Source: Clostridia bacterium (GTDB taxonomy: Bacteria > Bacillota > Clostridia > Monoglobales > Firm-18). From it: a DNA stretch of 64,000 nt. The stretch lies in assembly GCA_045654805.1 (NCBI GenBank), contig JAZOOD010000060.1, forward strand, positions 10,491-74,490, written 5' to 3'. Shown here piece by piece: positions 28,244 to 64,000 of this stretch (the first letter of the stretch is position 1; every line of letters starts with the position of its first letter). The position numbers and the translations under genes are program-made. Under the pieces are notes generated by a model, which worked only from the letters and a program-made list of their open reading frames with translations, was not told where the DNA came from and searched no databases.

Positions 28244-28283
28244 AGTATGATGTAAAAATATAAAATTGTCAGGAGAAATTAAT

Positions 28284-28931: not shown

Positions 28932-28941
28932 GGAGTTTAAA

Positions 28942-33434: not shown

Positions 33435-34669
33435 ACTACAGTGAAGCATTAGACTTTATTCATACAAGAAACAAATTTGGCATCAAGCTTGGTCTTGATG
33501 CCACAAGCAACTTGCTTGATAAAATAGGCAACCCTCATAAAAGGTTGAAATTTATCCATATAGCAGGTACTAACGGCAAGGGTTCTACTACTTCCTACAT
33601 TGCGGATATATTAATGTCAAAGGGATATAAGGTGGGCAAGTTTATATCACCGTATGTGTATTCCTTTACGGAACGTATACAGATAAACAATTGTGAAATT
33701 TCAGAAAACGACCTTGCAGAATGTGCAACTGTTGTACGAGATGCTATTGAAAAATACAACCTTACACCTACGGAGTTTGAAGTAGTTACCGCAATAGGAC
33801 TTTTATATTTTGAACGTCAAAATTGCGACTATGTATCCCTTGAAGTTGGTATGGGGGGAAGATTCGATGCAACCAATGTGATACCTGCACCGCTTGTTTC
33901 CGTTATTACCAGCATAAGTATTGACCATACGGAATACTTAGGTAATACAATAGCAGATATTGCCTTTGAAAAATGCGGAATTATCAAAACAGGTTCAAAT
34001 GTTATAGCATATGCGGACAATCCTACAGATGCTGTGAATGTAATTAAAAAAACAACCGCTGAAAAAAATGTGCCCCTTATAATACCTGATAAAAATGACA
34101 TTGTAATTTTACAACAAAGTATTGATGGTACTGATTTTGAATACAAAGGTGAAAAATACCACATAAATATGCTTGGAAAACATCAGGTTTACAATGCGGT
34201 AAGTGCTATTGAGGCAGCAAAGATATTAGGTGTTGAAAAAGAATATATTAAAAAAGGTCTTGAATATACAAAATTCCGCGGAAGAATGGAAATAGTAAGT
34301 AAAGACCCGGTTATAGTACAGGACGGTGCACATAATTATTCCGGAATTTTAGCTTTATACGATGCATTAAAAACATATTTTAATGATAAAAAAATAATTG
34401 TGGTTATGGCAATGCTCAAGGATAAAGAGTACGAAAAATGTATTAGCACAATAGCTCCTGTGGTGGATACATTTGTTGCAACTGAAGCCAACAATCCCCG
34501 AAAGGCAACTGCTGATGAAATTTCAATAACTGCAAAAAAATATATTAAAAACGTACATTCACAACCAGATGTAAATAAAGCTGTTGCATATGCAAAGTCA
34601 ATAAGCGATAACCACAGTATAATATGCGTATGCGGTTCGCTTTATCTGCTTGGGGACGTCAACATTTAA
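33431..34669 (+). CDS. folC: Folylpolyglutamate synthase / dihydrofolate synthase
   Basis: 412 aa with the P-loop [13 protein letters not shown] overlap with valS. This is the classic valS-folC linkage. Confidence 0.94.
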
Positions 34670-34688
34670 ACAGAAAGGACTTTTTAAA

Positions 34689-35996
34689 ATGAGATTTAAA
34701 AAAATACTACCGCAAATTATTACGGCAGCACTTTCGGTTGTAATGCTGATATATACCTTAATATCCACAAGAATTTCCGTAAGTACTTTTCCCTTTGAAC
34801 TATTGGAAAAGTTAGGAATTTACTACGGCGACACAGGATACGGAATTATAAACAGTGACATTTCACTGAACGGAAGCTATGAAGCGTTTGTATCATTTTT
34901 AAAAAAATTATCTGTAAATGGTATAATACACAGGCTGATACCCTTTATAATTCTTTCTGTTTTACTTGTTGTAGCTTTGGTTATCATATCAAAGGCAGCG
35001 TCAAAATCAAACTACAAATGGACTGTTTATTTGTGTGCAGTTTTATTACCCGTAGTATTTTGTGATTTTACAAATCTGGTATTTTTCAAAACGTTATATG
35101 CAAATCCTCTTATTCTCGTTCTTCTTATGTTAATCTGCGGAATATTGCTTATGATGTATAATAAAAATTCAGCGGGGATTACAGGAATAATAGCTGTTAG
35201 CGTTATAGCAATAATATACGGCCTTTTGGGAACTGTACAGGCAATAACTGCAATTATTATCGGAATAATAATTGGAAGACTTTCTAAAATATCCAAAAAT
35301 AAAATTTCAAAAATATTATCAATTGTTCTTGGTATTGTAATTATTGTACAAAGCCTATTGTTCAGTTTTAATTATAAAGCGTTTGATTACAAGCAAAATC
35401 TTTATAACTCTGTATTCTTCGGGGTATGCAAATATGATAGTGTTACAGAGCTAGGACTTGATAAAGAGCTTGATGACTTTAAAGAAGTCTATTACGGAAT
35501 GATGGAAAACGAGGCAGATTATGACCTTGAAAATAAGTTCTATAATAAAATGTCATATACAAAACTGATTAAGTATTATGCGACACATCCATCAACTGCC
35601 ATAAATGTAATTAATAATCAGGCAAAATCAGCGTTTTATAACGATTATGACTTTGGCTTTACCCCTTACAGCTCCGCAAAGAAGTTATATATACCTCTAA
35701 ACTTTATAATTTCTTTAGCTTTTACGGTAATATATATATCCATTGCAACTATAGTAGGAAAAAAATATAACACTATAAAACCTGTTACGGAATTTATGAT
35801 AGGTATTGCAGCTATGTGGTTTATGTCCCTTATTGCAACGGCAATATACTGCGGTAACTGTGATATAGCTCAAAATATGTACAATTTTAACATATTGTTT
35901 GATATTATGATAGTTTCCGGTTTGATTGGCGGTATAAGGGTTGTACTTCACAGACAGGATGAAAAGAAGGACGAATTCGGAATAACTCACGAATAA
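34689..35996 (+). CDS. Polytopic membrane protein, function unknown
   Basis: About 435 aa with many TM helices. ATG at 34689 follows GAAAGGA. No family recognised. Confidence 0.7.
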   Translation: MRFKKILPQIITAALSVVMLIYTLISTRISVSTFPFELLEKLGIYYGDTGYGIINSDISLNGSYEAFVSFLKKLSVNGIIHRLIPFIILSVLLVVALVIISKAASKSNYKWTVYLCAVLLPVVFCDFTNLVFFKTLYANPLILVLLMLICGILLMMYNKNSAGITGIIAVSVIAIIYGLLGTVQAITAIIIGIIIGRLSKISKNKISKILSIVLGIVIIVQSLLFSFNYKAFDYKQNLYNSVFFGVCKYDSVTELGLDKELDDFKEVYYGMMENEADYDLENKFYNKMSYTKLIKYYATHPSTAINVINNQAKSAFYNDYDFGFTPYSSAKKLYIPLNFIISLAFTVIYISIATIVGKKYNTIKPVTEFMIGIAAMWFMSLIATAIYCGNCDIAQNMYNFNILFDIMIVSGLIGGIRVVLHRQDEKKDEFGITHE

Positions 35997-36007
35997 AGGT
36001 AATTTAT

Positions 36008-36784
36008 ATGAGATTTTTAATTATAGGTGATATTGTAGGTAACAACGGCGTTGAGTATCTTCAACAGCACCTTGATTCCATAAGAAAATTAAATAAAATT
36101 GATTTTGTTATTGCAAATGCCGAAAACTCCACTCCCGTTGGGAAGGGTATAAACAAGGCTGTTGCACATATCCTTTACAACTGCGGGGTAGATGTTATAA
36201 CTATGGGAAACCATACATTTAACAATTACGAAATCAACAAACTATTTGACGAGGATTTTCCTATAGTACGTCCTGCCAATATGCCTCCGGAAACTGCCGG
36301 ACAGGGTTATGTGATAACAGACTTCTTCGGCACAAAAATAGCTGTCATAAATTTATTAGGTAGGGTATATATGGAGTGTATGGACTGTCCATTCCGTACC
36401 GCAGACAGTATAATTGAAAAAATCAAGGACGACACGGACATTATAATCGTAGACTTCCACGCTGAAGCAACCAGCGAAAAGAAAGCTATGGGCTTTTACC
36501 TTAACGGCAGAGTATCCGCAGTATTCGGTACACACACACACGTACAGACTTCAGATGAAAAAATACTTGACGGCGGTACTGCATATATAACCGACGTTGG
36601 TATGACAGGATGTCACGACAGCGTGCTTGGAGTGAAAAAGGATATTATAATTAAGCGCTTTTTAACCTCTATGCACCAAAGACATGAAATTCAGGACGGC
36701 CCGGCAACATTGGAAGGTATTATAATTGATATTGACGAATCTACAAGAAAAAGTAAATCAATAGAAAGAATACAAATAACATAA
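36008..36784 (+). CDS. ymdB: TIGR00282-family metallophosphoesterase YmdB
   Basis: 258 aa starting MRFLIIGDIVG, with ...ANAEN...GNH...DFHAEATSEK...GTHTHVQT. Confidence 0.9.
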   Translation: MRFLIIGDIVGNNGVEYLQQHLDSIRKLNKIDFVIANAENSTPVGKGINKAVAHILYNCGVDVITMGNHTFNNYEINKLFDEDFPIVRPANMPPETAGQGYVITDFFGTKIAVINLLGRVYMECMDCPFRTADSIIEKIKDDTDIIIVDFHAEATSEKKAMGFYLNGRVSAVFGTHTHVQTSDEKILDGGTAYITDVGMTGCHDSVLGVKKDIIIKRFLTSMHQRHEIQDGPATLEGIIIDIDESTRKSKSIERIQIT

Positions 36785-50747: not shown

Positions 50748-50823
50748 GCTAGTGTGGCGCAGTTGGTAGCGCAATTGATTCGTAATCAATAGGCCGAGGG
50801 TTCAAGTCCCTTCACTAGCTCCA
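50748..50823 (+). tRNA. tRNA-Thr (anticodon CGU)
   Basis: Folded by hand. Acceptor stem GCTAGTG/CACTAGC, D stem GCGC/GCGC, anticodon stem ATTGA/TCAAT with loop TTCGTAA (U33, CGT, A37). 5-nt variable loop, T arm GAGGG-TTCAAGT-CCCTT, encoded CCA. 76 nt. Confidence 0.93.
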
Positions 50824-50865: not shown

Positions 50866-52146
50866 CTAATTAATAGTGCCACTAGCATTTGCAACCAAAG
50901 GAATAGCTGATGTCAAACCATCAAATAAGAAAGCTTTATAATTCTTTCCATTAGCTGCAGATAACTCGCATGTCAATGTTCTGCAATCTCCAACAGTAGA
51001 AGGTGTTGATGATGTTTTAATCACAAAAGTACCGTCATTCTTCCACAAAGCTATTATTAAGCAAGGGTTTGCAACATTATTATTACCATATATATTAGCA
51101 GTAGCTGTAACACTGCCACTAGCAGCTGTTGCATTTAATTCAATACGTTCAGGGTCACCAGTCCATACAGTCGGAAAATTAGTATTATCCAAAAGTCTTA
51201 GTGAAATTTCATCAAAATATGTGTCATCATCGGTAGAAGATGCAGTTCCGATAAATAATTCCAATCTAGCATCATTGGTTGAAAAAGCTAGTGCATTCGT
51301 TGTTGTAGAAGTCCAAGTTCCTCCGCTCTGTTTATCAGAAACATCAGCATAGTAATATGAAACCTGTGTATTATCAAGGTAAGTAGCAACTTGTAGTTTA
51401 TCGGTATCTACATCATAGTGCCATCTTATTTCCCAAGTATACCATTTATCAGCATCCATCTCTACTGCCTTGGTCCAACCATTATCAAACATACCAGATA
51501 CAGTAGGATCACCTGTTACATAGCCTTTTCCGGAAGTTTCATTATAAGTATAGTTAATAGCCATACCATTAGCAGCTGAATGAAGCTGTCCTGCATCCAT
51601 CTTCTGAGATATTGTTCTAGGTGCAGCTTTAGTTTCCGCCGGAATATAAACCTCAGATTTAAAAGAAAGAACATTATCTGCTATAGAATTTGTTCCACCA
51701 GCAACAAGAGAAAAAGTTCCGGGTTTAACTGAATTTCTAAAAAGATAATACGAAATCGCGTAATACATATTGTTTGTATCACTAGCAGGTTTAACAGCTC
51801 CGGAAGCATACTCCATAGTAGCTAAAGTACCTGATCCCAAACCAGTAGTTCCAAAAGTGAAAATTTTACTATTAGCATTATGGTTACTATCCAAAATACC
51901 TTGTGGGTACTTGGTTGTATCTGTTTCCTCAACACCATTCACAGTATATTTTTTTGTAGTAGTATAGGAAAATAGATCACCAGCAGTTAATGCAGTAGAC
52001 TTATCAAAAGAATATAGCTGACCATCAAAAAGCCTAAAAGTCTTAACCGGCTCAGATGCAGCAGAAACATTGATACCTGCAAAACAACTGCATGACAAAA
52101 GTGTTGCCATTGCAACTGTGATTGCAATTAATCTTTTCAATTTCAT
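50866..52146 (-). CDS. Secreted protein, probable LamG/concanavalin-like jelly-roll, function unknown
   Basis: 426 aa with signal peptide MKLKRLIAITVAMATLLSCSCFAGINVSAAS (a possible lipobox LLSC). The central ...WYTWEIRWHYD...LELFIG...YFDEISL pattern suggests a lectin-like fold. RBS AGGGGG. No anchor module. Confidence 0.7.
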   Translation of the reverse strand: MKLKRLIAITVAMATLLSCSCFAGINVSAASEPVKTFRLFDGQLYSFDKSTALTAGDLFSYTTTKKYTVNGVEETDTTKYPQGILDSNHNANSKIFTFGTTGLGSGTLATMEYASGAVKPASDTNNMYYAISYYLFRNSVKPGTFSLVAGGTNSIADNVLSFKSEVYIPAETKAAPRTISQKMDAGQLHSAANGMAINYTYNETSGKGYVTGDPTVSGMFDNGWTKAVEMDADKWYTWEIRWHYDVDTDKLQVATYLDNTQVSYYYADVSDKQSGGTWTSTTTNALAFSTNDARLELFIGTASSTDDDTYFDEISLRLLDNTNFPTVWTGDPERIELNATAASGSVTATANIYGNNNVANPCLIIALWKNDGTFVIKTSSTPSTVGDCRTLTCELSAANGKNYKAFLFDGLTSAIPLVANASGTIN

Positions 52147-52419
52147 TATAAAATGACCCCCTTAAAATAATCGTTTTGTATAATTATAGCATTGAGCATT
52201 GTTATTTTCAATAGACAACTTGCACAAAAAACAAATACATTTTTTGCTATTTTAACAATTTTGTTACAATGTAATATGGTAATTTATACAAAAATCTGCT
52301 AATTATACATTAAAATGCAATTAAAATTCCTTGATTTTAGCTTTAATTGGTTGCGATATGATTAATAACCTCACGATATATAACAAAATCACAAATTTCG
52401 ACATAAATTTATATCGCTG

Positions 52420-52451
52420 AAAAAAGCGTACTGAAATCCTGTACGCTTTTT
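52420..52451 (-). terminator. Rho-independent terminator downstream of the 1531-aa SLH protein gene
   Basis: AGCGTAC pairs with GTACGCT, with flanking A/T runs. It lies about 80 nt after the stop at 52528. Confidence 0.7.
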
Positions 52452-52527
52452 CATATAAGTACGATACAATTTTACTCCCCGTTGATTTTGCCTTAATTTT
52501 AAGCGGGTTTCAACACTTTTGTCCTAA

Positions 52528-55500
52528 TTACTTCCAATCTTCCCACTTGTATTCATAACCTTCGTTGTCAAGCCAATAGTTGTGGGTAATTGTTGCTTCC
52601 AATACCGTTACATAGTACCATTTATCTTCATAAAGGTCGTTGTACGGATTGAACTTAAGTGATTTAACATAACTTTCCAGAGGCTTTCTGCCAAGGAGTT
52701 TATTTATAACTGTCATTACCTCTGCACGAGTGATGTTATTTTCAGGCTTATATGTCTTATCAGGATAACCTTCGATAAGTCCGATGTTTGTAAGTGCAAG
52801 AATTTCATCATAAGCCCAGTGACTTTCATCAAAGTCTGTAAATGGATTCTTGATATTATTTTTTTCAATTCCGGTGAATCTGAATATAAGCGCTGCAAAT
52901 TCTGCTCTGCTCAGGTTTCTTGTTGGTTTGAATTCGCCATCAGGATAACCGTTAACAATTTCTTTCTCAGCCATATACTCAATGTCACGAGTTGACCAGC
53001 GGTCAACATGAACATCGGGGAATACATCACCTGTTGGCACAAACGGTTTTTCGTATTGGTGGTTTGTAATACGGTACAGAATAGATGTGATTTCCTCACG
53101 AGTTATATCGCCTTCAGGCTGAACACTGCCATCAGGATAACCGTTAATATATCCTATATGTGTTGGATGTTCATTACCGAAAATATCCTTAGTATATTTT
53201 CTTGTCTTATCAATGGTTGTGGAACCGCCACCTCCTCCACCGCCACCGCCGGTGTGAACGGTCGTAGGAATTGTGTATTTGTAGATCCCAACTTGGCCAT
53301 AGACACCATGCCAGCATCCGGGCTTGTTAGGCACTTTACATTCAACACATTTTCCGCAAGAGCTATAATATACAGCTTTAACCGTTGTTGCTGTATCTAA
53401 AGATAGTTCTTCGCCATTATACGCAATACGTTTTGTGTTATCATTATCAGCCGGATTGCTTCCATCAAGGGTATAATACAGAATGATGTTTTCATCCGCA
53501 GGATAATCGTTTAAAAGTGTATATTTTGTTCCTTTCGGGAACTCAACATTTCCGCTTGCTTCAAGTGAAGTAGCAGGAACATCTAAGTGTACAAAGTCTA
53601 TTTTAAACAGACCGTCGCTACCCTCTACTTTACCATTTTCATCTTCGAGCCAAGCTATAATTGTAATATCGTCCATAAGTGCTGTAGGAATAATAGGACG
53701 TGTTACATCATAAACCGCTGTATTAGTGGTTATTGGCCGACCATCCGATTTCTTTGTATACGTGTAATAATAGTGGATGTCTGCTGTCTTGTTCTGTGAA
53801 AGCAACTTGATACCTTCAGCATAATCACCTGTACCGAGCAGGTGCGCACTGATTCTTTCAACATCATACGGATATGCAATATACACGCTGCCGTTTGCTG
53901 CACTACCTGACTCTATGATGTAGTAATGAATTGTATTTGCACTGACTCTGCCGGTATCTTCATTTAAGACATACGCCTTAAAGGACATAGTATGGGTAAT
54001 TGAACGTTCCTGTCCCGTATATCTGAAGTCTTTGGCATCACCATTCTGTCTGTACCAGATACTATATTCCTTATCTGCAGGTGCATCTTCGTTAAGGCTG
54101 ATTGTTGTTGTCTTGTTATCGCTTTCAAGATATGTACCTGAAGGCAAACTGATAACAGGTGCAAGAGGTACAAAGTTGTACACATAACTTACAACAGAAC
54201 TGTAATTACCATCCTTTTCATAACGAAGCTGCAATATTGTATCCTGTTTGAACAACAGCCCGTTTTGGTCAGTATAGTCTTTCCAATAACCTTCATTGTC
54301 AATTCGATACTGAATTTTACCACCACTGTTCAAGGAATAAAGCATTACCTTGAGAATGTTGTTATTATCATCAATCTTTATTTCTTCGTATGTCCCGGTC
54401 TCTTTATCTGCATAAGGAGGTGCAAGGACTGCGCTGTTAGATGTAGCGTATGTATATCTGTTCTTATCACTTTCTACACCGTCAAGTTCAGCAGAAATAT
54501 CTAATGTCACACTTCCGGAATTTACGCTTGTATTTAATAGTCCAAGTTGCTGGGTACATTCCTCATCACGGTATGCCATACCGGTACGGGTATCAATATA
54601 AAATCTCTCATCTTCTGAATTAATAAATTCATTTGCAAATCCGCCGATTTCATATTTTACAGTACTTCCTTTAACTGCATCAACAGGAACAACAGGCAAT
54701 TTACTTCCGCTTATTGTTGCTGAAGGGGCAGCCTTCGGGGCTTCGGGCGTGATAACATAAGAGAATATACCTACGTCACTTTTTACACCAAAACTATTTA
54801 CTGCAACAGCTTTTATAACAGTATTGCCCTTGATGTCAATAAACGAACTACCGTCATACAGATATGTTCCGTGTGTATTTGGAATAGGGTCAGGGCAAAG
54901 TCCACCATCATAGCTAATTGTGTAGTAAATATGCGTTCCCTGGGGAACGGGCATAAACTGAGTAGAATACTTTTCGCCACCAATTTCAAGCGTGTAGTGT
55001 CCCGGCACAAGTGTAGTAAGCGGTTTAACAGGTTTTACAGTTACAATGTCGTATGAGTGCTTAACAACACTTGAATAACTCTCATTGTCCTTTAATACTA
55101 CTGCAGTTACAACAGTATATTTAGTAATGTCTATGACTGCTGTATCTGATGTTTCATTTGCAAGGATACGGGTATTGCTCGTTATAGGATCAGTACCATC
55201 AAGAGTGTAGTAAAGTTTAAATCTATTTGACGTACTTTCTGTACTCTCAGGAGTATAAACAGTAATTTTGTTCGCGTTTGTAAACTGTGTGCTCTCCGGA
55301 GCAAATTCAGGCGGAAGAGGTTTGATTTTATATGTGAATGTGTAGGGGTCACCATATGTAACACTTCCGTCAGGATTTAATTTAACTGCTCTTGCAATTA
55401 TATCTGTATCTGCATCCAACTCAAGAACATCAGTGTAATTTTTCCACTGACCGTCACCGGTGTGATACTGCACGGTGTAATCAGGGTTGTTAGGTGTAAG

Positions 55501-57123
55501 TGTAACATTAACGCTTCCTTCATATACACCAGATGGATAGAATGCATCTACACCGAAATCGTCATAAAAGCTAAACAAGTAATAGTAAGAAACTTTATCA
55601 CTCCACTCGCCGTCAAAGTAGCTTATTGCACGAAGAGTAGTATCCTTGGCAAGAGTGATAGGTATTCCGGTGTATTCTATTCCATTTGTTTTCGGATCAC
55701 TTCCGTCTATGGTATAGAAAATCGTTGCGTTTTCAGTCTGAGTCGAGAGTCTTACGTCAATTTTTTCAGTATATTCGTTAGAAGCCTTGTCTGCTACCGG
55801 TGCAAGAGGTTTAATAGAAAAATAGTACACAGCAGGTTCACTGTATTCTTCAAGTTTTTTTGTAATCAGTCTGACAGTTCTGTTTTTATCAATCTTGATA
55901 ACAGGATTTTGTTTTGAAACAATAACCCAGCTTGTTTCCGGATCGTTACCGATTACTGGATTTTCTGCATCAAGATTTCCAAAGCTATAATATACCTCAC
56001 TGTCGTCTGCGATATTAGCGAAAACATTTTTATCCGAAACATACACATCACAGCTTGTAGAAAGACTGTTTATATCCGGCAATAATTTTTTCTCTGTAGA
56101 AGCATCAAACAAATATGGCCTATCTGGTAATATCTTATATTCGTATGTCACAGTGCTTGAGTACTTATTGTCAGATGCGCGATATGCACAAGTTTTAATT
56201 GTTGTATCAATAGTAATCTCAATAGGTCCTGTGTACGGAATTTTTGTGGAGCTTCCTGAAGGTTCACTTCCATCTGTTGTGTAATAGATAGGAAGATTGT
56301 TTTCCTGAGTGAGCTCTACAGTTACTTTTTCAATATAACTACCCGAAGTAGGTGTTGCCATAGGTGGAGTAGGTTTTGATTTATCTTTAATCAGAATGTG
56401 GTGATACCCACCATTTATTGCATTAAAACCAAATGTTTGATCTGAAAGTTCGTCAGACTGGTTCTTGGCAAAAAGTTCAAGGGTATATTCTTCGTCACCG
56501 CTGTCGATATCAATAAACACATCCGTACTACCTGTTTTCTTCGGAGTTAAAGAGAGTTTTGCAAGGTTATACCAAAGCTGACCATCCTCTTTTTGAGGAA
56601 CATAGCCACCGCTGTAAAAAACGGTTATATAAGCGGTTTTATATGTTTTTGTTCCTAATTTATAAGTGCCGCTGCCATGCTTGTGAATGTAATATCCAAT
56701 ATCTACCGGCAAATCCTCAATAGTATTATCACCAACATTTTCATCAGTATTTCCTGAATCACCAAAAATAGAATTCCGAACATAATAATCAATTGGAGTG
56801 TTGCTATCACCGCCTGCAAAATCAAAATAATCCGCATCAAAATAAATACGGAGCGTATAGCCGTTCATATCGTACTGTGGTTCTTTATGCGTGTTATTTT
56901 CATATGCTCCTTTGTTTGGATTGTCAACCGCAAAGTATATATCTGCATTTTCACCCATATATACAGTACTGTTATTCGTTGTTACCTGCGGATTTTCTCC
57001 CTGGGCATGCAGGTAAACAGAGCGCAGAGTCTTATCATCATCGGTTGCCGATATATTCATCGGAAATATCCCGATAAGCATAACAATACTTAATAATAGT
57101 GAAATGATTTTACTGCGTGTCAT
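52528..57123 (-). CDS. Giant S-layer-homology-anchored surface protein: cohesin-like N-domain, about 11 CHB_HEX_C-like repeats, poly-Gly linker, 3 SLH repeats
   Basis: 1531 aa with signal peptide MTRSKIISLLLSIVMLIGIFPMNISA. The motif (I/L)YYT.DGS.P...Y..PI......T.(K/R)A recurs about 11 times. G9 run at 53224-53250. The C-terminus has three FxD...W....I......G...GYPDG.F.P...ITRAE SLH units (about 52531-53220). Confidence 0.88.
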   Translation of the reverse strand: MTRSKIISLLLSIVMLIGIFPMNISATDDDKTLRSVYLHAQGENPQVTTNNSTVYMGENADIYFAVDNPNKGAYENNTHKEPQYDMNGYTLRIYFDADYFDFAGGDSNTPIDYYVRNSIFGDSGNTDENVGDNTIEDLPVDIGYYIHKHGSGTYKLGTKTYKTAYITVFYSGGYVPQKEDGQLWYNLAKLSLTPKKTGSTDVFIDIDSGDEEYTLELFAKNQSDELSDQTFGFNAINGGYHHILIKDKSKPTPPMATPTSGSYIEKVTVELTQENNLPIYYTTDGSEPSGSSTKIPYTGPIEITIDTTIKTCAYRASDNKYSSTVTYEYKILPDRPYLFDASTEKKLLPDINSLSTSCDVYVSDKNVFANIADDSEVYYSFGNLDAENPVIGNDPETSWVIVSKQNPVIKIDKNRTVRLITKKLEEYSEPAVYYFSIKPLAPVADKASNEYTEKIDVRLSTQTENATIFYTIDGSDPKTNGIEYTGIPITLAKDTTLRAISYFDGEWSDKVSYYYLFSFYDDFGVDAFYPSGVYEGSVNVTLTPNNPDYTVQYHTGDGQWKNYTDVLELDADTDIIARAVKLNPDGSVTYGDPYTFTYKIKPLPPEFAPESTQFTNANKITVYTPESTESTSNRFKLYYTLDGTDPITSNTRILANETSDTAVIDITKYTVVTAVVLKDNESYSSVVKHSYDIVTVKPVKPLTTLVPGHYTLEIGGEKYSTQFMPVPQGTHIYYTISYDGGLCPDPIPNTHGTYLYDGSSFIDIKGNTVIKAVAVNSFGVKSDVGIFSYVITPEAPKAAPSATISGSKLPVVPVDAVKGSTVKYEIGGFANEFINSEDERFYIDTRTGMAYRDEECTQQLGLLNTSVNSGSVTLDISAELDGVESDKNRYTYATSNSAVLAPPYADKETGTYEEIKIDDNNNILKVMLYSLNSGGKIQYRIDNEGYWKDYTDQNGLLFKQDTILQLRYEKDGNYSSVVSYVYNFVPLAPVISLPSGTYLESDNKTTTISLNEDAPADKEYSIWYRQNGDAKDFRYTGQERSITHTMSFKAYVLNEDTGRVSANTIHYYIIESGSAANGSVYIAYPYDVERISAHLLGTGDYAEGIKLLSQNKTADIHYYYTYTKKSDGRPITTNTAVYDVTRPIIPTALMDDITIIAWLEDENGKVEGSDGLFKIDFVHLDVPATSLEASGNVEFPKGTKYTLLNDYPADENIILYYTLDGSNPADNDNTKRIAYNGEELSLDTATTVKAVYYSSCGKCVECKVPNKPGCWHGVYGQVGIYKYTIPTTVHTGGGGGGGGGSTTIDKTRKYTKDIFGNEHPTHIGYINGYPDGSVQPEGDITREEITSILYRITNHQYEKPFVPTGDVFPDVHVDRWSTRDIEYMAEKEIVNGYPDGEFKPTRNLSRAEFAALIFRFTGIEKNNIKNPFTDFDESHWAYDEILALTNIGLIEGYPDKTYKPENNITRAEVMTVINKLLGRKPLESYVKSLKFNPYNDLYEDKWYYVTVLEATITHNYWLDNEGYEYKWEDWK
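53224..53250 (-). repeat. Nine consecutive Gly codons (linker before the SLH triad)
   Basis: The minus strand reads ggc ggt ggc ggt gga gga ggt ggc ggt. The codons are mixed, so it is not a pure homopolymer. Confidence 0.9.
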
Positions 57124-57149
57124 AAGTTATTTGCTCCTTCATTGTGTTC

Positions 57150-57276
57150 TCAAAAGAGGTTTATCACCTCTTTCAAAGCATACAACTCATTCAAAAACAA
57201 AAGTGGGGGGACAAATGATGCCGAACAAGTTGTATGTTTTGAAAGAGGGGGAAGCGATGCTTCCCGCCCCAAAAAA
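57150..57276 (-). promoter_or_regulatory. Intergenic RNA-structure region: terminator hairpin, 21-nt inverted repeat and a second terminator-like hairpin with mutually exclusive pairings
   Basis: T1 is GGGAAGC/GCTTCCC (57249-57265). The inverted-repeat arms are 57228-57248 and 57167-57187 (20/21 complementary, 40-nt spacer). T2 is AAGAGGT/ACCTCTT (57154-57172) followed by UUUUG, 25 nt before the RBS of the 1531-aa gene. The T2 5' arm lies inside the repeat arm. Confidence 0.55.
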
Positions 57277-57284
57277 GTATTTAA

Positions 57285-60200
57285 TTAGTTACCCCAAGAA
57301 ACAAGTACATAAGCTACGTCCTTAGAGTCAATTACACCATTACGATCAAGGTCGTATTTAGCATAATCGCTGTAAGCTGTTGTATCGTTTGTAGTACCGA
57401 AGTAAGAAACTACAGCAGAAAGGTCGTAAATGTTAATCTTGTTATCCTTAACAATATCACCTGCAAGGTATGTAACATTTACTGCACCTGTTTCCTTACC
57501 AACTTCAATAGTCTGCGCTTCATCTCTAACGTTGTTCCAGAATCTAAGAGTCTTATCTTCTGTCATTGTTACTGTGTAACGAGCTGTTCTGTATCCTGCG
57601 CCTGATACTGTTACTGTGTAAGCAGCATTGTAAGGAAGCTCTTTTGTAAAGTTATATGCTGTACCGTCAGTACCAAGAGCGATAGTTTCATTAACTGTTC
57701 CTCCAACGATTGTTACTGTCATATCCTGATATGCTTTAACGTTGTTTTCAACTGCATTCGGGAATGTGATGTCAATAGTAAGTTTTCTTGTTGGAACTGC
57801 GATTGTGATATCTTTAATTGTATCGTCAGAAACGTCAAATTCTCCAACTACAGTACCATCTTCAAGTACACCACCGGGAACGAATGTATCAACGACGCTA
57901 TCGAAGAGTTTTGTTGCGTGAGCAGCGTTTGTTATAATGTCGTTACCTTTATCGTCTTCAGTTGCTACTGCAAAGCTGAACTTACCATAACCTGTGAACT
58001 TAACCTGACCAATTGTGATGGTTTCGGCTGTATCTGTATCAACATCTGTTTTGCCATTATAATGGAATTCATAACGAACCTTGCTGTTATCAACAGGGTT
58101 GATTGCAACCTCATCATTAGATGCGATGATTGTAAAGTCGTTTTCGCCTTCAATCTGCTCAAGAGCAAATGTAAGGTCAACAGAGTTTAATCTGTTAATA
58201 ATCTTACCGGGAGCTGTAATGTTGATGTTGTAAACCATTTCGCCTTCTTTTTCAAGAGCCTTTTCGAATGTAACTGCGATTTCTTCAACAAATTTTTCTT
58301 TTTCAGCAACTCTGTAAGAACCACATGAATATGCAACTTGATATCCGTCGATTGTGGTTAATGTAATTTCTGCAGGAGCAGTTAACATTGAATCTGGAAC
58401 AATCTGGAATGTATCAACAGCTTCATCTACTACAAACGTATCAATACTGTTGTCGCCTTCGAATACATAGTTGGACTTGGTGGTATTGTTTCTTGTCCAG
58501 GTACCGAGAATGCTGATGTCACTGTCTTTAATTGTGATGGTTTTTTCGCCATAGTTGGAGTTCAGAACACCTGCTACAGCGCAATCAAGATCTACGTTTT
58601 CAATCACCACTTCCTGGCTGTAATCTACCTTTAAGCCGTAATTACAGTCGCTTACAGTAATATTCTTTACAGTAACGCGTACAGAACCTTTAGCAACCTG
58701 AACAAAACCATAACCGTAGTCTTTCGCAGTACAATCCTCAATTGTTACGTAGTATGCACCTTTGGATTCAACGGCATAACCGTTATAGCCTTTACCGTCA
58801 AAGTTTACGTTCTTGATTGTAACATCGGCTCTGTTCGTAAGCGTCATTTTACCGGTATAGGTTTTTTCTGCACCGTCAACAACAATGCTCTTATTGATTG
58901 TTACATCTTCTGTAACATCTGCAAGAATTATAATTGTGTCGCCTTCAGTAGCTGCTTTAACAGCATCACTGAATGTTGTATAAAGCTTACCATCCACAAG
59001 AGCAACAGATTTGTCTGTTTCTGGTGTTGTGCCTGCAGCCTGTGCAAAAACAACTTCATCATCAACAACTACAACTGTATCTCCTTTGCAATTCTCTTTT
59101 TTAACGTTCCAAAGAGTGTTTCCGCTTAAAGAGCCTGTAGCAAAGCCGTTAGCTGTTGTAGCATCGTCAATTGTGATATTTGTTTCCCCAGACATTAAGC
59201 TTGTGTCGATTTCTATAGCAGCCTTTCCGTCAACGGGAGTAGTTGCGTTAAAGGTTGTATTTACAAATTTAACACTATTCGCTGTAGATTCATGATAAAC
59301 CAAAACACTCTTACCTGCACTGTTGAAAGTACAATTATTAAATTCTACAACCTTTGCACTATAAGTCCATACATTGTATGCATCAGAAGATTCCTGAACA
59401 AATTCACAGTTGTTAAAGGTTTCTACATTTCCGTAAAGGAAAGGCTGACCAACAATTTTTACATTGTTATATGTCATAACATCAGAATGTTGAAAACCTT
59501 TATAATTGTCGTTTGTAAATTTAAGTGTAATACCATCAAATGTAAGGCTTGCGTTTGTTGCATAAGCACCGATAGGGCCAATTACAACATTTCTTGAACC
59601 CTTGATAGTTACATCCTTGCCGATAGAAGGCATAGTATATTCGCCATCTGCCAAAATTTCTATAGTATCACCGTCAACTGCTGCTGCAGCTGCTTTTGCA
59701 AATGTTGCATAGTATGTATCGCCGATTTTTGCAACAGCACCTTCAAGATATGGTGCACTTCCATTTACAGTAACCTTTCCCTGATGATCTGCTGAATCCT
59801 CATCAACCCAGACAATATTTTTACTGTCTGCTGCAACGCCAGAAATATCAACAGTATTTGTTGTAATTTCAGCACCCTTAACAGACTTCACCACAATGGC
59901 AGCTTTCTTAGCAGTCGTGAACTTAGCATTGGATACATTCAGAGTAACCTCTGCAACACTATCGTTGGAATACTGCTCATCAATCTTAATACCGCGTCCC
60001 GGAGTGTCTATAACAAGACCGTCAATGGTCACATTCTGACCTTCTGCCTGAATCCAGAGTGCATAGTAATCACCGGTACCATTGATTGTCACATTTTTCA
60101 TCTCGACATTCTTTCCGGTATTTGTCAAAGCTACTTCCTTGTCGAAGGTAACATTTTCGAACTGATAATTGCAGTTGGCAAAAATCAGGTCATTGATGTT

Positions 60201-60596
60201 CCAAGTAGCAGCTGAGTTGCCGGTGCTATTCATAGAACCATTTTTGATGATGATTATAGCATCGTCATTCTTTGCTCCAATAGAAGACATATAGGTAGTG
60301 GTAATGGTCATCTTATGATTATTTAAGTTAATGACGATAGACTCAGTATTCTCACCACCGAGTTTATACTCACCACTGCCGGGGGTCTGAGTTCCAAGAG
60401 AACTCATAAGAACATCAATATCATTTTCAAGGGTAATTGAGATATACTTTTCGTCGCTTGTCAAAGCATTCGCTAATGCTTCAGGCGTAGAAACATTGGT
60501 AGATTCAACATTTCCTTCAGCAAATACTGCTGTTCCCATTGTGCTCAATACCATTGCTACCGCAAGGATTGAAGCTAAAACTCTTTTAAGTTTCAC
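57285..60596 (-). CDS. Secreted multi-beta-helix protein with cohesin-like module, Ig-like/CarboxypepD_reg-like module and C-terminal dockerin
   Basis: 1103 aa with GTG start 7 nt after GGAAG and signal peptide MKLKRVLASILAVAMVLSTMGTAVFA. It has three parallel beta-helix-like units (about 58377-60509; repeated cap motif ..Y.TF..A..AA..GDTI.ILAD). The cohesin-like segment is about 57957-58295. The dockerin (57288-57467) reads GDIVKDNKINIYDLSAVVSYFG...YDLDRNGVIDSKDVAYVL. Confidence 0.88.
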   Translation of the reverse strand: MKLKRVLASILAVAMVLSTMGTAVFAEGNVESTNVSTPEALANALTSDEKYISITLENDIDVLMSSLGTQTPGSGEYKLGGENTESIVINLNNHKMTITTTYMSSIGAKNDDAIIIIKNGSMNSTGNSAATWNINDLIFANCNYQFENVTFDKEVALTNTGKNVEMKNVTINGTGDYYALWIQAEGQNVTIDGLVIDTPGRGIKIDEQYSNDSVAEVTLNVSNAKFTTAKKAAIVVKSVKGAEITTNTVDISGVAADSKNIVWVDEDSADHQGKVTVNGSAPYLEGAVAKIGDTYYATFAKAAAAAVDGDTIEILADGEYTMPSIGKDVTIKGSRNVVIGPIGAYATNASLTFDGITLKFTNDNYKGFQHSDVMTYNNVKIVGQPFLYGNVETFNNCEFVQESSDAYNVWTYSAKVVEFNNCTFNSAGKSVLVYHESTANSVKFVNTTFNATTPVDGKAAIEIDTSLMSGETNITIDDATTANGFATGSLSGNTLWNVKKENCKGDTVVVVDDEVVFAQAAGTTPETDKSVALVDGKLYTTFSDAVKAATEGDTIIILADVTEDVTINKSIVVDGAEKTYTGKMTLTNRADVTIKNVNFDGKGYNGYAVESKGAYYVTIEDCTAKDYGYGFVQVAKGSVRVTVKNITVSDCNYGLKVDYSQEVVIENVDLDCAVAGVLNSNYGEKTITIKDSDISILGTWTRNNTTKSNYVFEGDNSIDTFVVDEAVDTFQIVPDSMLTAPAEITLTTIDGYQVAYSCGSYRVAEKEKFVEEIAVTFEKALEKEGEMVYNINITAPGKIINRLNSVDLTFALEQIEGENDFTIIASNDEVAINPVDNSKVRYEFHYNGKTDVDTDTAETITIGQVKFTGYGKFSFAVATEDDKGNDIITNAAHATKLFDSVVDTFVPGGVLEDGTVVGEFDVSDDTIKDITIAVPTRKLTIDITFPNAVENNVKAYQDMTVTIVGGTVNETIALGTDGTAYNFTKELPYNAAYTVTVSGAGYRTARYTVTMTEDKTLRFWNNVRDEAQTIEVGKETGAVNVTYLAGDIVKDNKINIYDLSAVVSYFGTTNDTTAYSDYAKYDLDRNGVIDSKDVAYVLVSWGN

Positions 60597-60840
60597 AAGA
60601 AAACTTCCTTTCTTTATTAAATTTTACGAAATTACCGCTTTCGCCTGCGGGCAGAGATTTTAGTTCATTATTCCGGCGTTCCCTGCATCCAAACCGCAAA
60701 TAATGTGTTAATTTAATCCTCACCTCCAGAGTGCCTTTGTGGCAGTTGATAATTATAAAACAATTGATGGGCGGTGCTCTTATGAAAAGCAACTGCCACA
60801 CAAAGCACCGAGCAAGGAATTTGCCGCTCGCCGCCCCATA
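60597..60840 (-). promoter_or_regulatory. About 240-nt GC-enriched, highly structured 5' leader of the beta-helix/dockerin gene (unclassified, riboswitch-like)
   Basis: Three-way-junction-like fold at 60767-60839. The outer stem is ATGGG(G)CGG/CCGCCCAT, the hairpin is 60809-60830, and a third stem is GTGCT/AGCAC. A competing 18-bp helix forms between 60790-60808 and 60731-60748. A second stem-loop domain spans 60644-60700. Confidence 0.5.
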
Positions 60841-60867
60841 TATAATTAGTCAACGAATGTTGAATAA

Positions 60868-61107
60868 TTATCTGAAAAATCTACCTATAATTGGTATGTG
60901 CGATATATACAATCTTTTTAATTCGCTTTTCCAATAGTAATACTCATTGCCATCGCTACGATGCATTTCCATTTTTATATAGTCTCTCGCTTTCATAAAA
61001 GGAGCAATAACATTAAAATAGAAAGCCAAAACAACAAAAAATCCTATAATAACTACAAAAGCAAATATTAAGAATGTATCTTCCGTGTTGTCGTAGGTAT
61101 ATGCCAT
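60868..61107 (-). CDS. 79-aa single-pass membrane protein, translationally coupled to the upstream scaffoldin-like gene
   Basis: MAYTYDNTEDTFLIFAFVVIIGFFVVLAFYFNVIAPFMKARDY... The ATG lies 1 nt after the stop of the 61109-63127 gene. No family recognised. Confidence 0.55.
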   Translation of the reverse strand: MAYTYDNTEDTFLIFAFVVIIGFFVVLAFYFNVIAPFMKARDYIKMEMHRSDGNEYYYWKSELKRLYISHIPIIGRFFR

Positions 61108-61108
61108 A

Positions 61109-63127
61109 TTAGTTCATTAACGCCACCAATCTTGCACACATAACTGCAACTTCTGCACGAGTTGCATTTCCAAGTGGGTTAACATTACCGTCTGCACCCT
61201 GAATAATGCCAGCCTTAACCATAGAAGCCATTGCTGTTTTTGCGTAGTCAGAAATACTATCCTTATCTGCAAAAGCATCAAGAGATGTCAGGTCATCAGT
61301 TTCTGTAATATATCCTTTTGTGAGGAAAGCACGATATGCAAGAGTGATTAAATCCTGTCTTGTGATTGTGTTTTCCGGCATAAAGTTTTCACCGCTACCC
61401 TGAGCAATGCCACTGGCCTTTGCACTACCAATTGCATTGTAGTAATAGCTTGAAGCAGGTACATCGGCAAAGTTTTCAGTGAAAGCATCGCCTATTGACA
61501 ACATTCTTGTTAGTATAAGAATAAAGTCACCACGTTTAATGTTATTAGCAGGAGCATATTCTGTCTCACTTACACCACTGATAATGCCTTTATTCTTTAA
61601 TGTATAAATAGAATCTTTTGCCCAGCCATAATTTCCGAGATCAGTAAATGTTTCTGTTATTTCGGAAGGAGTAGTAGGTGTAGTGGGCGTTGTCGGGGTT
61701 GTGGGGGTAGTAGGTGTAGAACCACCACCGGCTCCACCGCCACCACCGGCGCCTCCTCCGCCTCCTGCACCTCCGCTGCCACCTTCAGCTGCAGCGGTTT
61801 TAGTATTGGCGGTAGCAGAAAATTCACTTGTGCCTATTTCGTTCTTTGCTGCAATCTTCACATAGTAAGTTGTGTTGTCTGAAAGACCTGTAATTTCCTT
61901 GCTTGTGCTACTTGCGTTTGTAATTTCTGCTGTTTTGTTAAGGTCAGAACTGCTTGTTCCGTATTTGATTGTATAGCCGGTTATTGCAGAACCGCCATTA
62001 TAGGGAGCTGACCAGCTAACCGTAATCTTTTTCTCACCGCCTGTTACGGTAGGCGCAGACATTTTTGCAGGAACAGTTTTGGTATCAGTATCCATTTCAC
62101 CGAAGATATCGTCGTAGTTATTTACTTTGGTATCTCTGTTAAAATCTGCACAATCATCATAACTGCCGTTCTTAATTTCTTCAAATGCAGTTTTATCTGC
62201 AGAATCAACCTTCCCATCCATATTAACATCGCCTGGAACGAAATCGGCATTTGTCAATTCAAGTACATCTTCAAATGTAACCCCGGTCTTTTTATATGTA
62301 ACGTAGCCGTTTCCTTTAAGTTCAACTGTATATGTAGCTCCATCAACAACAGTGTTTTCTACAATAAAAGTAGGCACTGATGAATTTGAATCATAATGAC
62401 CACCCTTTGTGTTAGAAACTGTATTGAGGACGGTGTTAATTGTTGAACCGGTTCTCTCGTTTGTAATCGTAAGGATAATTTTACTGTCAGAGTATCCGTC
62501 TCCATCTGAAACCTGAAAATCATCAATCTTATCCATTGTAAGTTTAACGGTAGCCGTTACACCTGCATTATCTTCGCTACTTGCAGTAGCATTTTCCTTT
62601 TCAGTTGCGTCACTTACTGTTTCAATATAACTATTTCCAATCTTCACATAGCTTCCTGCTGCACTGCTATTATCAAGACTAAGAGTTACACTGTCACCTG
62701 GATCACCTGCAAAAGTTATAATAAACAAATCTGTTTGTGCATCAGTAAGGATTAAACTTCCAAAGTTGTTAGTAACAATACTTGGAAGGATTTTCCCCGT
62801 GGTGTTTGCAAGTGCCGCATTAGGTGCAATATGTGCACACTTGGGTGGGTTGTTTTCACCCTGTAAAAAGTCAATGGATTTATATTTGAGGTCGCCATCG
62901 AATTTGAGTGCAGTTTGTACTGCGGTTACGCTACCGCCAGCACCTTTCACACTGACTTTAATCTTTGCTTCACCAAGAAGCGTTGTCTGGTCGTCCTGTG
63001 TAACATCCGTTAATATAATTTCTATATTATCCGCTTCCGCTGAGACGGGAATTGCCACTTGCGTCCCGAATACAAGCGAAACTGCAAGTATTATTGAGCC
63101 GACTTTCCTTAACCATTTGAAATACAT
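61109..63127 (-). CDS. SLH-anchored scaffoldin-like protein: cohesin-like module, internal dockerin, FN3, Gly/Pro-Thr linker, 3 SLH repeats
   Basis: About 672 aa from the ATG at 63127, 8 nt after GGAGGG (the track ORF starts at 63142). Signal peptide ...VAIPVSAEA. Modules: cohesin-like 62648-63034, dockerin 62102-62242 (GDVNMDGKVDSAD...ADFNRDTKVNNYDD), FN3 61799-62071, linker 61667-61798, SLH x3 61112-61654. Confidence 0.88.
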   Translation of the reverse strand: MYFKWLRKVGSIILAVSLVFGTQVAIPVSAEADNIEIILTDVTQDDQTTLLGEAKIKVSVKGAGGSVTAVQTALKFDGDLKYKSIDFLQGENNPPKCAHIAPNAALANTTGKILPSIVTNNFGSLILTDAQTDLFIITFAGDPGDSVTLSLDNSSAAGSYVKIGNSYIETVSDATEKENATASSEDNAGVTATVKLTMDKIDDFQVSDGDGYSDSKIILTITNERTGSTINTVLNTVSNTKGGHYDSNSSVPTFIVENTVVDGATYTVELKGNGYVTYKKTGVTFEDVLELTNADFVPGDVNMDGKVDSADKTAFEEIKNGSYDDCADFNRDTKVNNYDDIFGEMDTDTKTVPAKMSAPTVTGGEKKITVSWSAPYNGGSAITGYTIKYGTSSSDLNKTAEITNASSTSKEITGLSDNTTYYVKIAAKNEIGTSEFSATANTKTAAAEGGSGGAGGGGGAGGGGGAGGGSTPTTPTTPTTPTTPTTPSEITETFTDLGNYGWAKDSIYTLKNKGIISGVSETEYAPANNIKRGDFILILTRMLSIGDAFTENFADVPASSYYYNAIGSAKASGIAQGSGENFMPENTITRQDLITLAYRAFLTKGYITETDDLTSLDAFADKDSISDYAKTAMASMVKAGIIQGADGNVNPLGNATRAEVAVMCARLVALMN
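61667..61798 (-). repeat. Low-complexity linker coding repeat: (G/A/S)-rich run followed by (PTT)5
   Basis: Encodes AAAEGGSGGAGGGGGAGGGGGAGGGSTPTTPTTPTTPTTPTTPS. The DNA shows imperfect 9-nt (PTT) and 15-18-nt (GGGGGA) periodicity. Confidence 0.9.
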
Positions 63128-63234
63128 TTTTATTCCCTCCATTTTCTAAAATGTTTTATGTAAATAAAATTACATCTAAATAAGTTTTGCAAACATAAAG
63201 GCTTTCTGCTAAAAACTGTGATTTAATAATTTTA

Positions 63235-63474
63235 TCACTCTTCGCCACGAAGTATAGACAACAGTTTGTTTTTGGCCTTTTTGTTGTCTGTTTCCGGTTC
63301 TGCATCTACAAAACAGGAAATCACTTCGTTCCAATCCTCAATGGGAGCTAATCCACTTGGAACTCTTTCTTCTACTAAATTTGCCAACCTATTTTTCTTT
63401 TCTGCAGGCAAATCCTTTAATTCACTGTTCATATCGCATTTTGCCTGTATTTTAATTGCTTCGATCAACCTCAT
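63235..63474 (-). CDS. Small acidic hypothetical protein
   Basis: 79 aa with RBS AGGGAGAG before the ATG. No TM segment or motif recognised. It lies between the TetR gene and the surface-protein cluster. Confidence 0.55.
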   Translation of the reverse strand: MRLIEAIKIQAKCDMNSELKDLPAEKKNRLANLVEERVPSGLAPIEDWNEVISCFVDAEPETDNKKAKNKLLSILRGEE

Positions 63475-63509: not shown

Positions 63510-64000
63510 TTACTGTTGTATATCTATATCTATCTTTTCTACTATTCTCTCATATAGATTATCAAGCAACATTTGAGTCTTTTCTGCATCATCCCATATT
63601 ACATAATCTATTACAGAAGCAATTATTGAATAAACAAACACTTCCGCTTGATGATGTGAGCATCCAAAAATACCGATAATTTTTTCAGCATACTTTTCAT
63701 AAAGCAATCTGAAATCTTTCGATTTATCTCGCATTCGCTCTCCAAATACAGGGCTGGTTGTAATTTGGATTGCAATCCTCAGCTCATACTTGTATTTTTC
63801 TACCTCCAAAAGGAGCGTATCAAAATATTTTCGAACATCATGAGTATGATTGAGTGTGAATAAAAACAAAGCATCGACCACTTTAGATAGTCCATATTTT
63901 CCCGCACTGATCCAAATATCATCTTTGTTTTCAAACCAATGATACAAACTGCTTTGGGCAAGTTTCGTTTCTCTGCATAATTCCCCGATTGAAGCGTGTG
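63510..64000 (-). CDS. TetR/AcrR-family transcriptional regulator (5' end outside the window)
   Basis: The frame stays open to the window edge. The N-terminal part in the window reads ...ASIGELCRETKLAQSSLYHWFENKDDIW (TetR HTH). The C-terminal ligand domain is 63510-63947. Confidence 0.85.
   Translation of the reverse strand, partial: HASIGELCRETKLAQSSLYHWFENKDDIWISAGKYGLSKVVDALFLFTLNHTHDVRKYFDTLLLEVEKYKYELRIAIQITTSPVFGERMRDKSKDFRLLYEKYAEKIIGIFGCSHHQAEVFVYSIIASVIDYVIWDDAEKTQMLLDNLYERIVEKIDIDIQQ

Follow-up and report, generated by a model that had tools for sequence, protein, structure and literature searches.

Cohesin-dockerin assemblies are understood almost only as organisers of the enzymes that are used for fibre or starch breakdown. 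In the cellulosome of Clostridium thermocellum (Acetivibrio), the Coh9-X-DocII trimodule of CipA (cohesin, X-module and type II dockerin) is bound to the type II cohesins of SdbA, OlpB and Orf2p, which are anchored by surface-layer homology (SLH) modules, and a triple SLH unit is the standard non-covalent anchor to the secondary cell-wall polymer. Here we describe a locus built from related parts, in which no enzyme was detected, on the minus strand of a 64,000-nucleotide stretch of DNA from a Clostridia bacterium (positions 10,491 to 74,490 of contig JAZOOD010000060.1, assembly GCA_045654805.1; hereafter the window). Its principal members are an SLH-anchored protein with a cohesin fold, an X-module and a dockerin (gene i), a secreted beta-helix cargo protein that ends in an X-module and a dockerin (gene iii) and a stalked, SLH-anchored cohesin protein (gene iv). 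The locus fails the definition of a cellulosome. In mechanism and parts it corresponds to the module by which complex cellulosomes are anchored through type II cohesins and X-dockerins, and we consider it rather probable that it is a cohesin-dockerin system of the non-cellulosomal kind, serving to display adhesin-like proteins without enzymatic function on the cell surface. The first-pass annotation of the window, which numbered the genes i to v and took them for a self-contained and enzyme-free docking complex, was largely right in its core but too generous on five genes, on three cohesins, on self-containment and on novelty of kind.

Several described systems bear on such a locus. A scaffoldin with one cohesin and one dockerin is termed a monovalent adaptor, and one with at least one cohesin together with SLH modules is an SLH-anchoring scaffoldin (PMC11557425); gene i meets both of these definitions at once and gene iv meets the second. 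Non-cellulosomal cohesin/dockerin sets are already a category (Peer et al., 2009, as cited in PMC6487960), non-carbohydrate dockerin proteins occur in the rumen (PMC6487960), and 'scaffoldin-containing' non-cellulolytic microbes such as Lachnoclostridium sp. MSJ-17 have been reported (PMC11557425). Like those sets, the present locus combines cohesins and dockerins without a fibrolytic enzyme complement being seen, and unlike them it is organised as an operon that is conserved and comprises a regulator, a defined pair of anchors and an exchangeable array of cargo genes. In human Ruminococcus, sequence-divergent cohesin families were recovered by AlphaFold (PMC13463774), and the cohesins described here resemble them in that the fold is kept, sequence models fail and structure prediction is what makes them visible. 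The Ruminococcus cellulosomes have sortase-linked anchoring scaffoldins (PMC11557425), while the present locus belongs to another lineage, is SLH-anchored and has no enzyme cargo that could be found.

Because non-cellulosomal cohesin/dockerin sets and 'scaffoldin-containing' microbes have been described, the kind of system is already known, and the suggestion of the first-pass annotation that this one would be functionally undescribed has to be given up as a statement on kind. The variant and the clade, relatives of Ructibacterium and Congzhengia, are undescribed in the literature searched, in which neither genus was found mentioned together with cohesin or dockerin.

All five genes are co-oriented on the minus strand and were recovered in the open reading frame (ORF) listing where the first-pass annotation had placed them; the modules given below are on the same strand. 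The ORF of gene i spans 61109-63142, and we retain 63127 as its start, as originally annotated, since homologues begin at the MYFKW found there (gene i, 61109..63127). A signal peptide is followed by a cohesin-fold module (aa 36-185, 62588..63037), an Ig-like X-module (aa 186-300, 62243..62587), an internal dockerin (aa 301-352, 62087..62242), an FN3 domain (61778..62086; Pfam fn3 E 3.5e-13, with titin and FN3 matches in the PDB), a Gly/PT linker (61664-61786) and, after the linker, a triple SLH unit (61112..61663; Pfam SLH E 4e-24 in three stretches, and the Sap SLH structures 3pyw and 6bt4 in the PDB). The cohesin module has no Pfam or PDB sequence match, including in a PDB profile search with its own alignment. 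An AlphaFold2 (AF2) model of aa 36-352 (predicted local distance difference test, pLDDT, 88.8; predicted TM-score, pTM, 0.83) has as its top Foldseek matches 4fl4_C and 3kcp_A, which are CipA Coh9-X-DocII, with an E-value of 2.6e-9 over about 330 columns and thus over the full length, and the modelled X-module aligns with that of the CipA trimodule. The model also matches single cohesins, namely 2jh2 (target TM-score, TMt, 0.69), 6kgd (TMt 0.64) and 5lxv, 3ul4 and 5k39_A (prob 1.00 for all three), such matches including 2jh2 and 2vo8 of C. perfringens, CohA2 of C. acetobutylicum, ScaC of R. flavefaciens, OlpA and type II cohesins. On this model the N-terminal domain of gene i is a cohesin fold, and from the model and the Foldseek matches the protein is therefore read as Coh-X-Doc-FN3-linker-3xSLH, a monovalent adaptor fused to an SLH anchor. 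The cohesin-like module, the dockerin, the FN3 domain and the three SLH modules had all been named before, and the X-module in front of the dockerin had been missed. Among 5.8 billion proteins the N-terminal part of gene i has 22 relatives, and those that are complete have the same architecture.

The dockerin of gene i has two Ca-binding loops, GDVNMDGKVDSAD and ADFNRDTKVNNYD, and matches Pfam Dockerin_1 at aa 303-344 with an E-value of 0.019 and 15.6 bits, below the cut-off of 22.9. PF00404 is precomputed for 8 of the 22 homologues, and a motif scan found both Ca loops in 15 of 18 gene i homologues of related loci, loci without a cargo gene between genes i and iv included, and one loop in the remaining three. 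By hhalign, the X-module-dockerin (X-Doc) dyad of gene i is a homologue of that of gene iii (prob 96.9, E 1.5e-10). Two Ca loops and a dockerin-like model thus mark the dockerin of gene i as a genuine one by prediction, though it is sub-threshold in Pfam, and two loop motifs in each of genes i and iii bear out the two Ca-binding dockerins that had been annotated.

Gene iv (52528..57123) encodes 1531 aa with a signal peptide, a cohesin-fold module (aa 26-260, 56344..57048), a stalk of Ig-like CHB_HEX_C_1/Fn3_assoc repeats (53251..56343; five stretches in Pfam) and a poly-Gly segment (53224-53250) that together with a triple SLH unit covers 52531..53250 (Pfam SLH E 1.3e-30 in three stretches, and Sap SLH in the PDB). 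The N-domain has 28 relatives and no Pfam, PDB sequence, PDB profile or hhalign match. In a Foldseek search with its AF2 model (pLDDT 84.4), cohesins made up 26 of the 27 top matches and were mostly of type II, with E-values of 8e-5 to 5e-3 and a TMt to cohesins of 0.32-0.64 (0.48-0.64 for single-module targets). The nearest structures, 1qzn (E 8.1e-5, TMt 0.61), 3ghp, 3fnk, 4fl4_K, 5k39_A, 2b59_A and 2bm3, are those of A. cellulolyticus ScaB and ScaA and of C. thermocellum SdbA and partners. As modelled, the domain has the fold of a cohesin, enlarged by insertions to 235 aa from the usual length of about 170, and its structural neighbours, rather than sequence phylogeny, would place it in type II. 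In the stalk, an iterated hidden Markov model detected seven clear repeats and one weak one and a motif scan added one at about aa 1017, such that at least eight of the roughly 11 repeats first proposed are detectable, with space for about 11. The two SLH anchors of the first-pass annotation were recovered by both Pfam and the PDB, and the triple SLH of genes i and iv is in each case a wall-binding unit as predicted from sequence.

The Pfam cohesin family PF00963 had no match at E<=1 in any of the five proteins and none at E<=10 in 57 scanned members of the gene iii cassette family (see below) or in 26 homologues of the gene iv N-domain. The cohesin-like segments that the first-pass annotation had proposed therefore fail in PF00963 and are recovered by AF2 and Foldseek for genes i and iv.

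Gene iii (57285..60596) encodes a secreted protein of 1103 aa, of which an identical copy is present in a representative protein library. Its payload (aa 28-760, 58317..60515) consists of three differing beta-helix units of about 240 aa each, and is followed by a module designated D1 (aa 761-900, 57897..58316) and by an X-module and dockerin (57288..57896), the dockerin lying at about 57288-57476 with the loops GDIVKDNKINIYD and YDLDRNGVIDSKD. Pfam recognises Beta_helix at aa 587-694 and Dockerin_1 at aa 1045-1097 (23.8 bits, cut-off 22.9); the C-terminal cassette alone scores 27.1 bits for Dockerin_1, which is matched by all 57 scanned members of the cassette family. By phmmer against the PDB, gene iii matches the CipA X-DocII chain 2b59_B (E 1.4e-5) in an alignment that begins in the X-module, and with the cassette profile the PDB matches of the dockerin region are mainly type II X-dockerins (2b59_B, 3kcp_A, 5g5d_B, 5k39_B, 4u3s_B, 4wi0_B). 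The beta-helix units and the C-terminal dockerin were thus annotated correctly, and what had been called an Ig-like module is an X-module of the same kind as that of gene i; in both genes it lies immediately N-terminal to the dockerin, as a type II-style dyad. D1, the third cohesin-like module of the first-pass annotation, occupies in gene iii the position of the cohesin in gene i (D1-X-Doc versus Coh-X-Doc). It has no Pfam or PDB match by sequence or profile, and its hhalign comparison with the gene i cohesin is weak (P 0.01, 102 in-register columns; the control, the cohesin of gene i against that of gene iv, gave P 0.85). This negative profile result says little about D1, because two structure-validated cohesins miss each other by hhalign as well.

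The likeness to the type II anchoring of C. thermocellum is fourfold. The Coh-X-Doc of gene i corresponds to CipA Coh9-X-DocII over its full length, the cargo dockerin matches CipA X-DocII by sequence, the cohesin of gene iv is nearest to type II structures that include SdbA, and the cohesin bearers carry SLH anchors. There are also differences. None of the multi-cohesin primary scaffoldin, the CBM3, the type I dockerin enzymes and the glycoside hydrolases (GH) of C. thermocellum was found here, every dockerin, that of the cargo included, has an X-module, the Coh-X-Doc and an SLH anchor form one fusion protein, a CHB_HEX_C stalk of about 1000 aa carries the anchoring cohesin, and the cohesins are undetectable by PF00963. 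No published scaffoldin with both a dockerin and an SLH anchor is known to us, though no systematic search for one was made.

The locus is conserved. When species-representative genomes were scanned with the N-domain of gene iv, 51 species loci were recovered (loci of relatives are numbered below with the prefix L), nearly all of them in gut or rumen metagenome-assembled genomes labelled Clostridia, Oscillospiraceae or similar; among the hosts are also Congzhengia sp., Candidatus Roslinia caecavium and a cultured organism, Ructibacterium gallinarum DSM 107454 (L043). Domain-wise tblastn was informative for the flanks of 43 loci, of which 37 have a gene ending in X-Doc at a distance of 200-300 bp upstream of gene iv, and in the other six the gene i homologue directly adjoins gene iv; gene i is found upstream wherever the flanking sequence suffices. 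The order of a TetR-like gene, gene i, an 81-aa gene, cargo and gene iv was seen entire in independent look-ups. The conserved block, in about 50 species, is TetR, gene i, (gene ii), zero to at least four X-Doc cargo genes and gene iv, hence synteny in relatives is confirmed and the five-gene extent given to it before is not. Cargo length is kept at about 1000-1700 aa, with little conservation of the N-terminal beta-helix portion. Four tandem copies of the cassette occur in L051 (blastn), and L053, which has four dockerin genes and then a second gene iv paralogue, is on the same contig as L001 (ERZ28760212 contig_4061), one genome thus carrying two loci. Cargo genes also stand alone among housekeeping genes in relatives. 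Since cargo cassettes occur in tandem arrays and separate loci of relatives, and in more than 150 proteins altogether, the locus is not self-contained as had been claimed. An apparent fusion of cargo and gene iv in L030 was rejected as an artefact, as a masked run of N (about 6100-6400) removes the stop codon of the cargo gene.

The interaction modules evolve faster than the anchors. Coh and X-Doc modules have mean pairwise distances of 0.44-0.50, SLH modules of 0.24-0.31, and in distance matrices of nine loci the divergence of the gene i cohesin, the gene i X-Doc, the gene iv cohesin and the cargo X-Doc is mutually correlated (r 0.68-0.88) and has only a weak relation to SLH divergence. An assignment of partners by co-divergence was rejected, the differences between pairings being too small and n = 9 loci too low. 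Between L048 and the window, identity is 88-92% for the SLH modules and gene ii but falls to 44% in both cohesins and to 40% in the cargo X-Doc, with an overall range of 38-55% for cohesin and X-Doc modules. This mosaic suggests co-diversifying specificity sets, or else module exchange or replacement within one locus.

How might the parts work together? Genes i, iii and iv have signal-peptide-like N-termini. Gene iv would be a stalked anchoring scaffoldin, its N-terminal type II-like cohesin held tens of nanometres from the wall, and X-Doc cargo such as gene iii would plug into this cohesin in a Ca2+-dependent manner. We place the cargo on the gene iv cohesin because the genes are adjacent, the cargo dockerin is similar to CipA DocII and the structural neighbours of the gene iv cohesin are type II-like. 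Exchangeable and fast-evolving cargo genes could then provide a modular, variable adhesin tip. Gene i would supply a second, wall-proximal cohesin, and its X-Doc could dock to the cohesin of gene iv or to that of another gene i molecule, giving cross-linking or extension, and the TetR-family gene may make the system responsive to a ligand. An alternative, CipA-like wiring would put the cargo on the gene i cohesin and the gene i X-Doc on the gene iv cohesin, and fits the data just as well, apart from the SLH anchor that gene i itself possesses. A more far-reaching proposal, to which we give an outside chance, is that Coh-X-Doc is a polymer building block, gene i and possibly each D1-X-Doc cargo carrying both a socket and a plug. 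Head-to-tail chains might then start at the far end of the stalk of gene iv or link one anchor to the next. If this were true, it would be a non-covalent, exchangeable, pilus-like adhesive fibre or lattice, clade-wide in gut Clostridia, and an appendage principle distinct from sortase pili, S-layers and cellulosomes.

The display of non-enzymatic proteins has to be weighed against the proposal that a cellulosome- or amylosome-like system for polysaccharide degradation is anchored by this locus and has its enzymes, with matching dockerins, encoded elsewhere in the genome. Cargo genes with the same cassette do exist away from the locus, CBM_X2 is present on one cassette protein, our view of this genome is limited to 64 kb, and divergent cohesins had concealed whole cellulosomes in Ruminococcus (PMC13463774). 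The searches speak otherwise. Neither Pfam nor NCBIfam finds a GH, carbohydrate-binding module (CBM), protease or sortase domain in the five proteins, NCBIfam adding nothing relevant, which upholds the earlier statement that there is no recognisable catalytic payload. All eight orthologous in-locus cargo proteins scanned with Pfam are enzyme-free and have Dockerin, some with Beta_helix or GLUG, as well as weak, sub-threshold Ig-like PEGA/CarboxypepD_reg matches. The cassette occurs in more than 150 proteins, and among the 120 of these that were listed and supplied the domain contents, none has a GH, polysaccharide lyase (PL) or carbohydrate esterase (CE) Pfam domain; they have PF00404, rarely with CBM_X2, Flg_new or the Pectate_lyase_5 'adhesive' domain. 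Dockerin-borne carbohydrate-active enzymes (CAZymes) are therefore lacking from the locus, from the eight orthologous cargoes and from the 120 listed cassette proteins. By Pfam, the locus also has no multi-cohesin primary scaffoldin, no significant CBM and no CBM3, each bearer having one cohesin with no further copies in the window, and the X-module type of gene i was found in gene i orthologues only. Hence we regard an association with a distant set of degradative enzymes as unlikely.

The cargo could instead be an enzyme itself, for example a lyase or depolymerase of the pectate-lyase superfamily, and the locus would then display an enzyme with a novel catalytic module. Points in favour are the Pfam Beta_helix matches, a relative with the same units (P0179) that also has a Pect-lyase_RHGA_epim match and a likeness, at chance level, to a pectinesterase motif. 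That likeness is a PDB profile match of a beta-helix unit with E = 1, on which a pectinesterase identity was rejected, and there is no significant match to a catalytic family in Pfam, NCBIfam or the PDB profiles. The closest named relatives are adhesive. A close homologue with 80% identity over the cassette region has the Pfam domain Pectate_lyase_5, 'putative pectate lyase-like adhesive domain', and in the search of the profiles of units u3 and u2 against the PDB the sole hint was the pneumococcal adhesin PfbA (3zpp_A, E 0.017, which is below significance). Matches to each of these units occur in more than 2000 cluster representatives, among them proteins as long as 7230 aa and with as many as 21 matched stretches, as is typical of fibrillar adhesins, and relatives with gene iii units carry BspA-type leucine-rich repeats (LRR_5), C-terminal dockerins or Beta_helix only. 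Apart from the generic Beta_helix model, the unit family is barely covered by Pfam. The cargo thus resembles the Gram-positive beta-helix fibrillar adhesins (S. pneumoniae PfbA, 3zpp; Pectate_lyase_5) in having recurring right-handed beta-helix units of the sort found in giant surface proteins, a likeness to PfbA that is below significance and from which adhesion is inferred. It differs from PfbA, deposited as a 'cell wall surface anchor family protein', in its predicted attachment via a dockerin. From the resemblance to fibrillar adhesin modules, the payload of gene iii most likely mediates adhesion, and an enzymatic cargo appears improbable.

Lastly, it is very unlikely that the cohesin folds are mere structural beta-sandwiches of wall or S-layer proteins, with the dockerins as Ca-binding stabilisers and no docking, since in spite of the absent sequence-level cohesin signal and the modest Foldseek E-values of gene iv, about 50 species have kept the combination of cohesin folds, X-Doc dyads and SLH anchors within a single operon, the Coh and X-Doc modules share their divergence, which is faster than that of SLH, and the Coh-X-Doc trimodule of gene i matches CipA Coh9-X-DocII as a whole.

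Several points weigh against a non-enzymatic display system as we propose it. The cohesin call depends on two AF2 models and Foldseek, with E-values of only 1e-4 to 1e-3 for gene iv, and all sequence and profile searches (Pfam PF00963, PDB, hhalign) fail on both cohesin modules. The term enzyme-free is a negative result that holds as far as sequence models see, and many of the cassette-family matches are contig fragments without N-termini, so enzymes could be missed. Right-handed beta-helices include many lyases and hydrolases. In addition, an SLH-anchored protein that also bears a dockerin does not fit easily into the geometry of a simple stalk.

The genes around the core differ in how closely they belong to it. 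Upstream of gene i lies a TetR-family regulator gene (63510..64000, minus strand) with an HTH-like N-terminal part, which is cut by the window end, its frame being open to the edge. By tblastn it is kept directly upstream of gene i in L004 (85%), L048, L013, L023, L001 and L027, its L001 counterpart has a faint TetR_N match in Pfam, and in L004 the DNA homology upstream continues through this gene to the window end. Between it and gene i is a 79-aa acidic ORF (63235-63474), kept only in L004 (66%), the closest locus with upstream sequence. Gene ii (60868..61107), which starts 1 nt past the gene i stop and encodes 79 aa with a single transmembrane segment, is an accessory member: homologues directly follow gene i in six of about 19 loci (L001, L004, L005, L018, L048 and L050), and it has no Pfam or NCBIfam family match.

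At the other end, gene v (50866..52146; 426 aa) has a signal-peptide-like N-terminus and was rightly called secreted, and for the lectin-like nature it had been given no support came from Pfam, NCBIfam or PDB searches, all of them without a match. It has no tblastn match in 58 related loci and no relative in the metagenome scan, and is preceded by a promoter-like site (52211-52183; 11/12, with an extended -10 TG), the best of the region and the only noteworthy result of promoter and terminator scans whose overall counts are at background level. The DNA homology to the twelve best-matching relatives (L002-L021, L051) stops at the gene iv stop codon (52525-52528). With no gene v homologue in related loci, a promoter-like site of its own and homology that ends at the gene iv stop, gene v and the adjacent tRNA are neighbours outside the system, and the five-gene unit is not upheld. 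Gene v is an orphan and may be a lineage-specific acquisition beside the tRNA-Thr. This tRNA-Thr(CGT) (50748-50823, plus strand, opposite to genes i-v), the sole tRNA found by ARAGORN, is present as annotated, and a conserved tRNA neighbourhood is not seen. Beyond it Pfam recognises housekeeping-type genes (NTP transferase, tadA-like deaminase, VanW, SbcCD-like, AlaRS and FtsK). The window has a GC content of about 37% and ORFs mainly on the minus strand; at 28266-36784, six successive plus-strand ORFs lie within a minus-strand region and the sign of the GC skew flips over the same stretch.

In one species (L001 1-3007; L057 1-6619; L058 1-4021) the locus lies directly beside mobile-element genes, with an integrase in all three sequences, a relaxase and MobC in L057 and L058, ArdA in L057 and a Tet(M)-like gene of the elongation factor G (EF-G) family in L001. 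In the same species gene iv is followed (L001 14654-20543; L057 16857-22076) by a 48-aa ORF, a 466-aa domainless protein, a 646-aa protein with a weak Big_5 match and a 604-aa protein with Flg_new and Cu_amine_oxidN1, a set that is absent from the window. For anchoring scaffoldins of the non-SLH type, Cu_amine_oxidN1 has been listed as a module that binds the wall (PMC11557425).

In dozens of uncultured gut Clostridia species, then, a conserved and apparently regulated operon appears to use plug-and-socket logic with no enzyme detected, and sequence models have again overlooked whole cohesin families. The experimental path is clear, because a cultured relative, Ructibacterium gallinarum, carries the locus. 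Protein engineering would gain orthogonal cohesin/X-dockerin pairs from the system, and, if our reading is true, the system would provide a testable mechanism for the attachment of these bacteria to particles, mucus or other cells and for variation of their surface.

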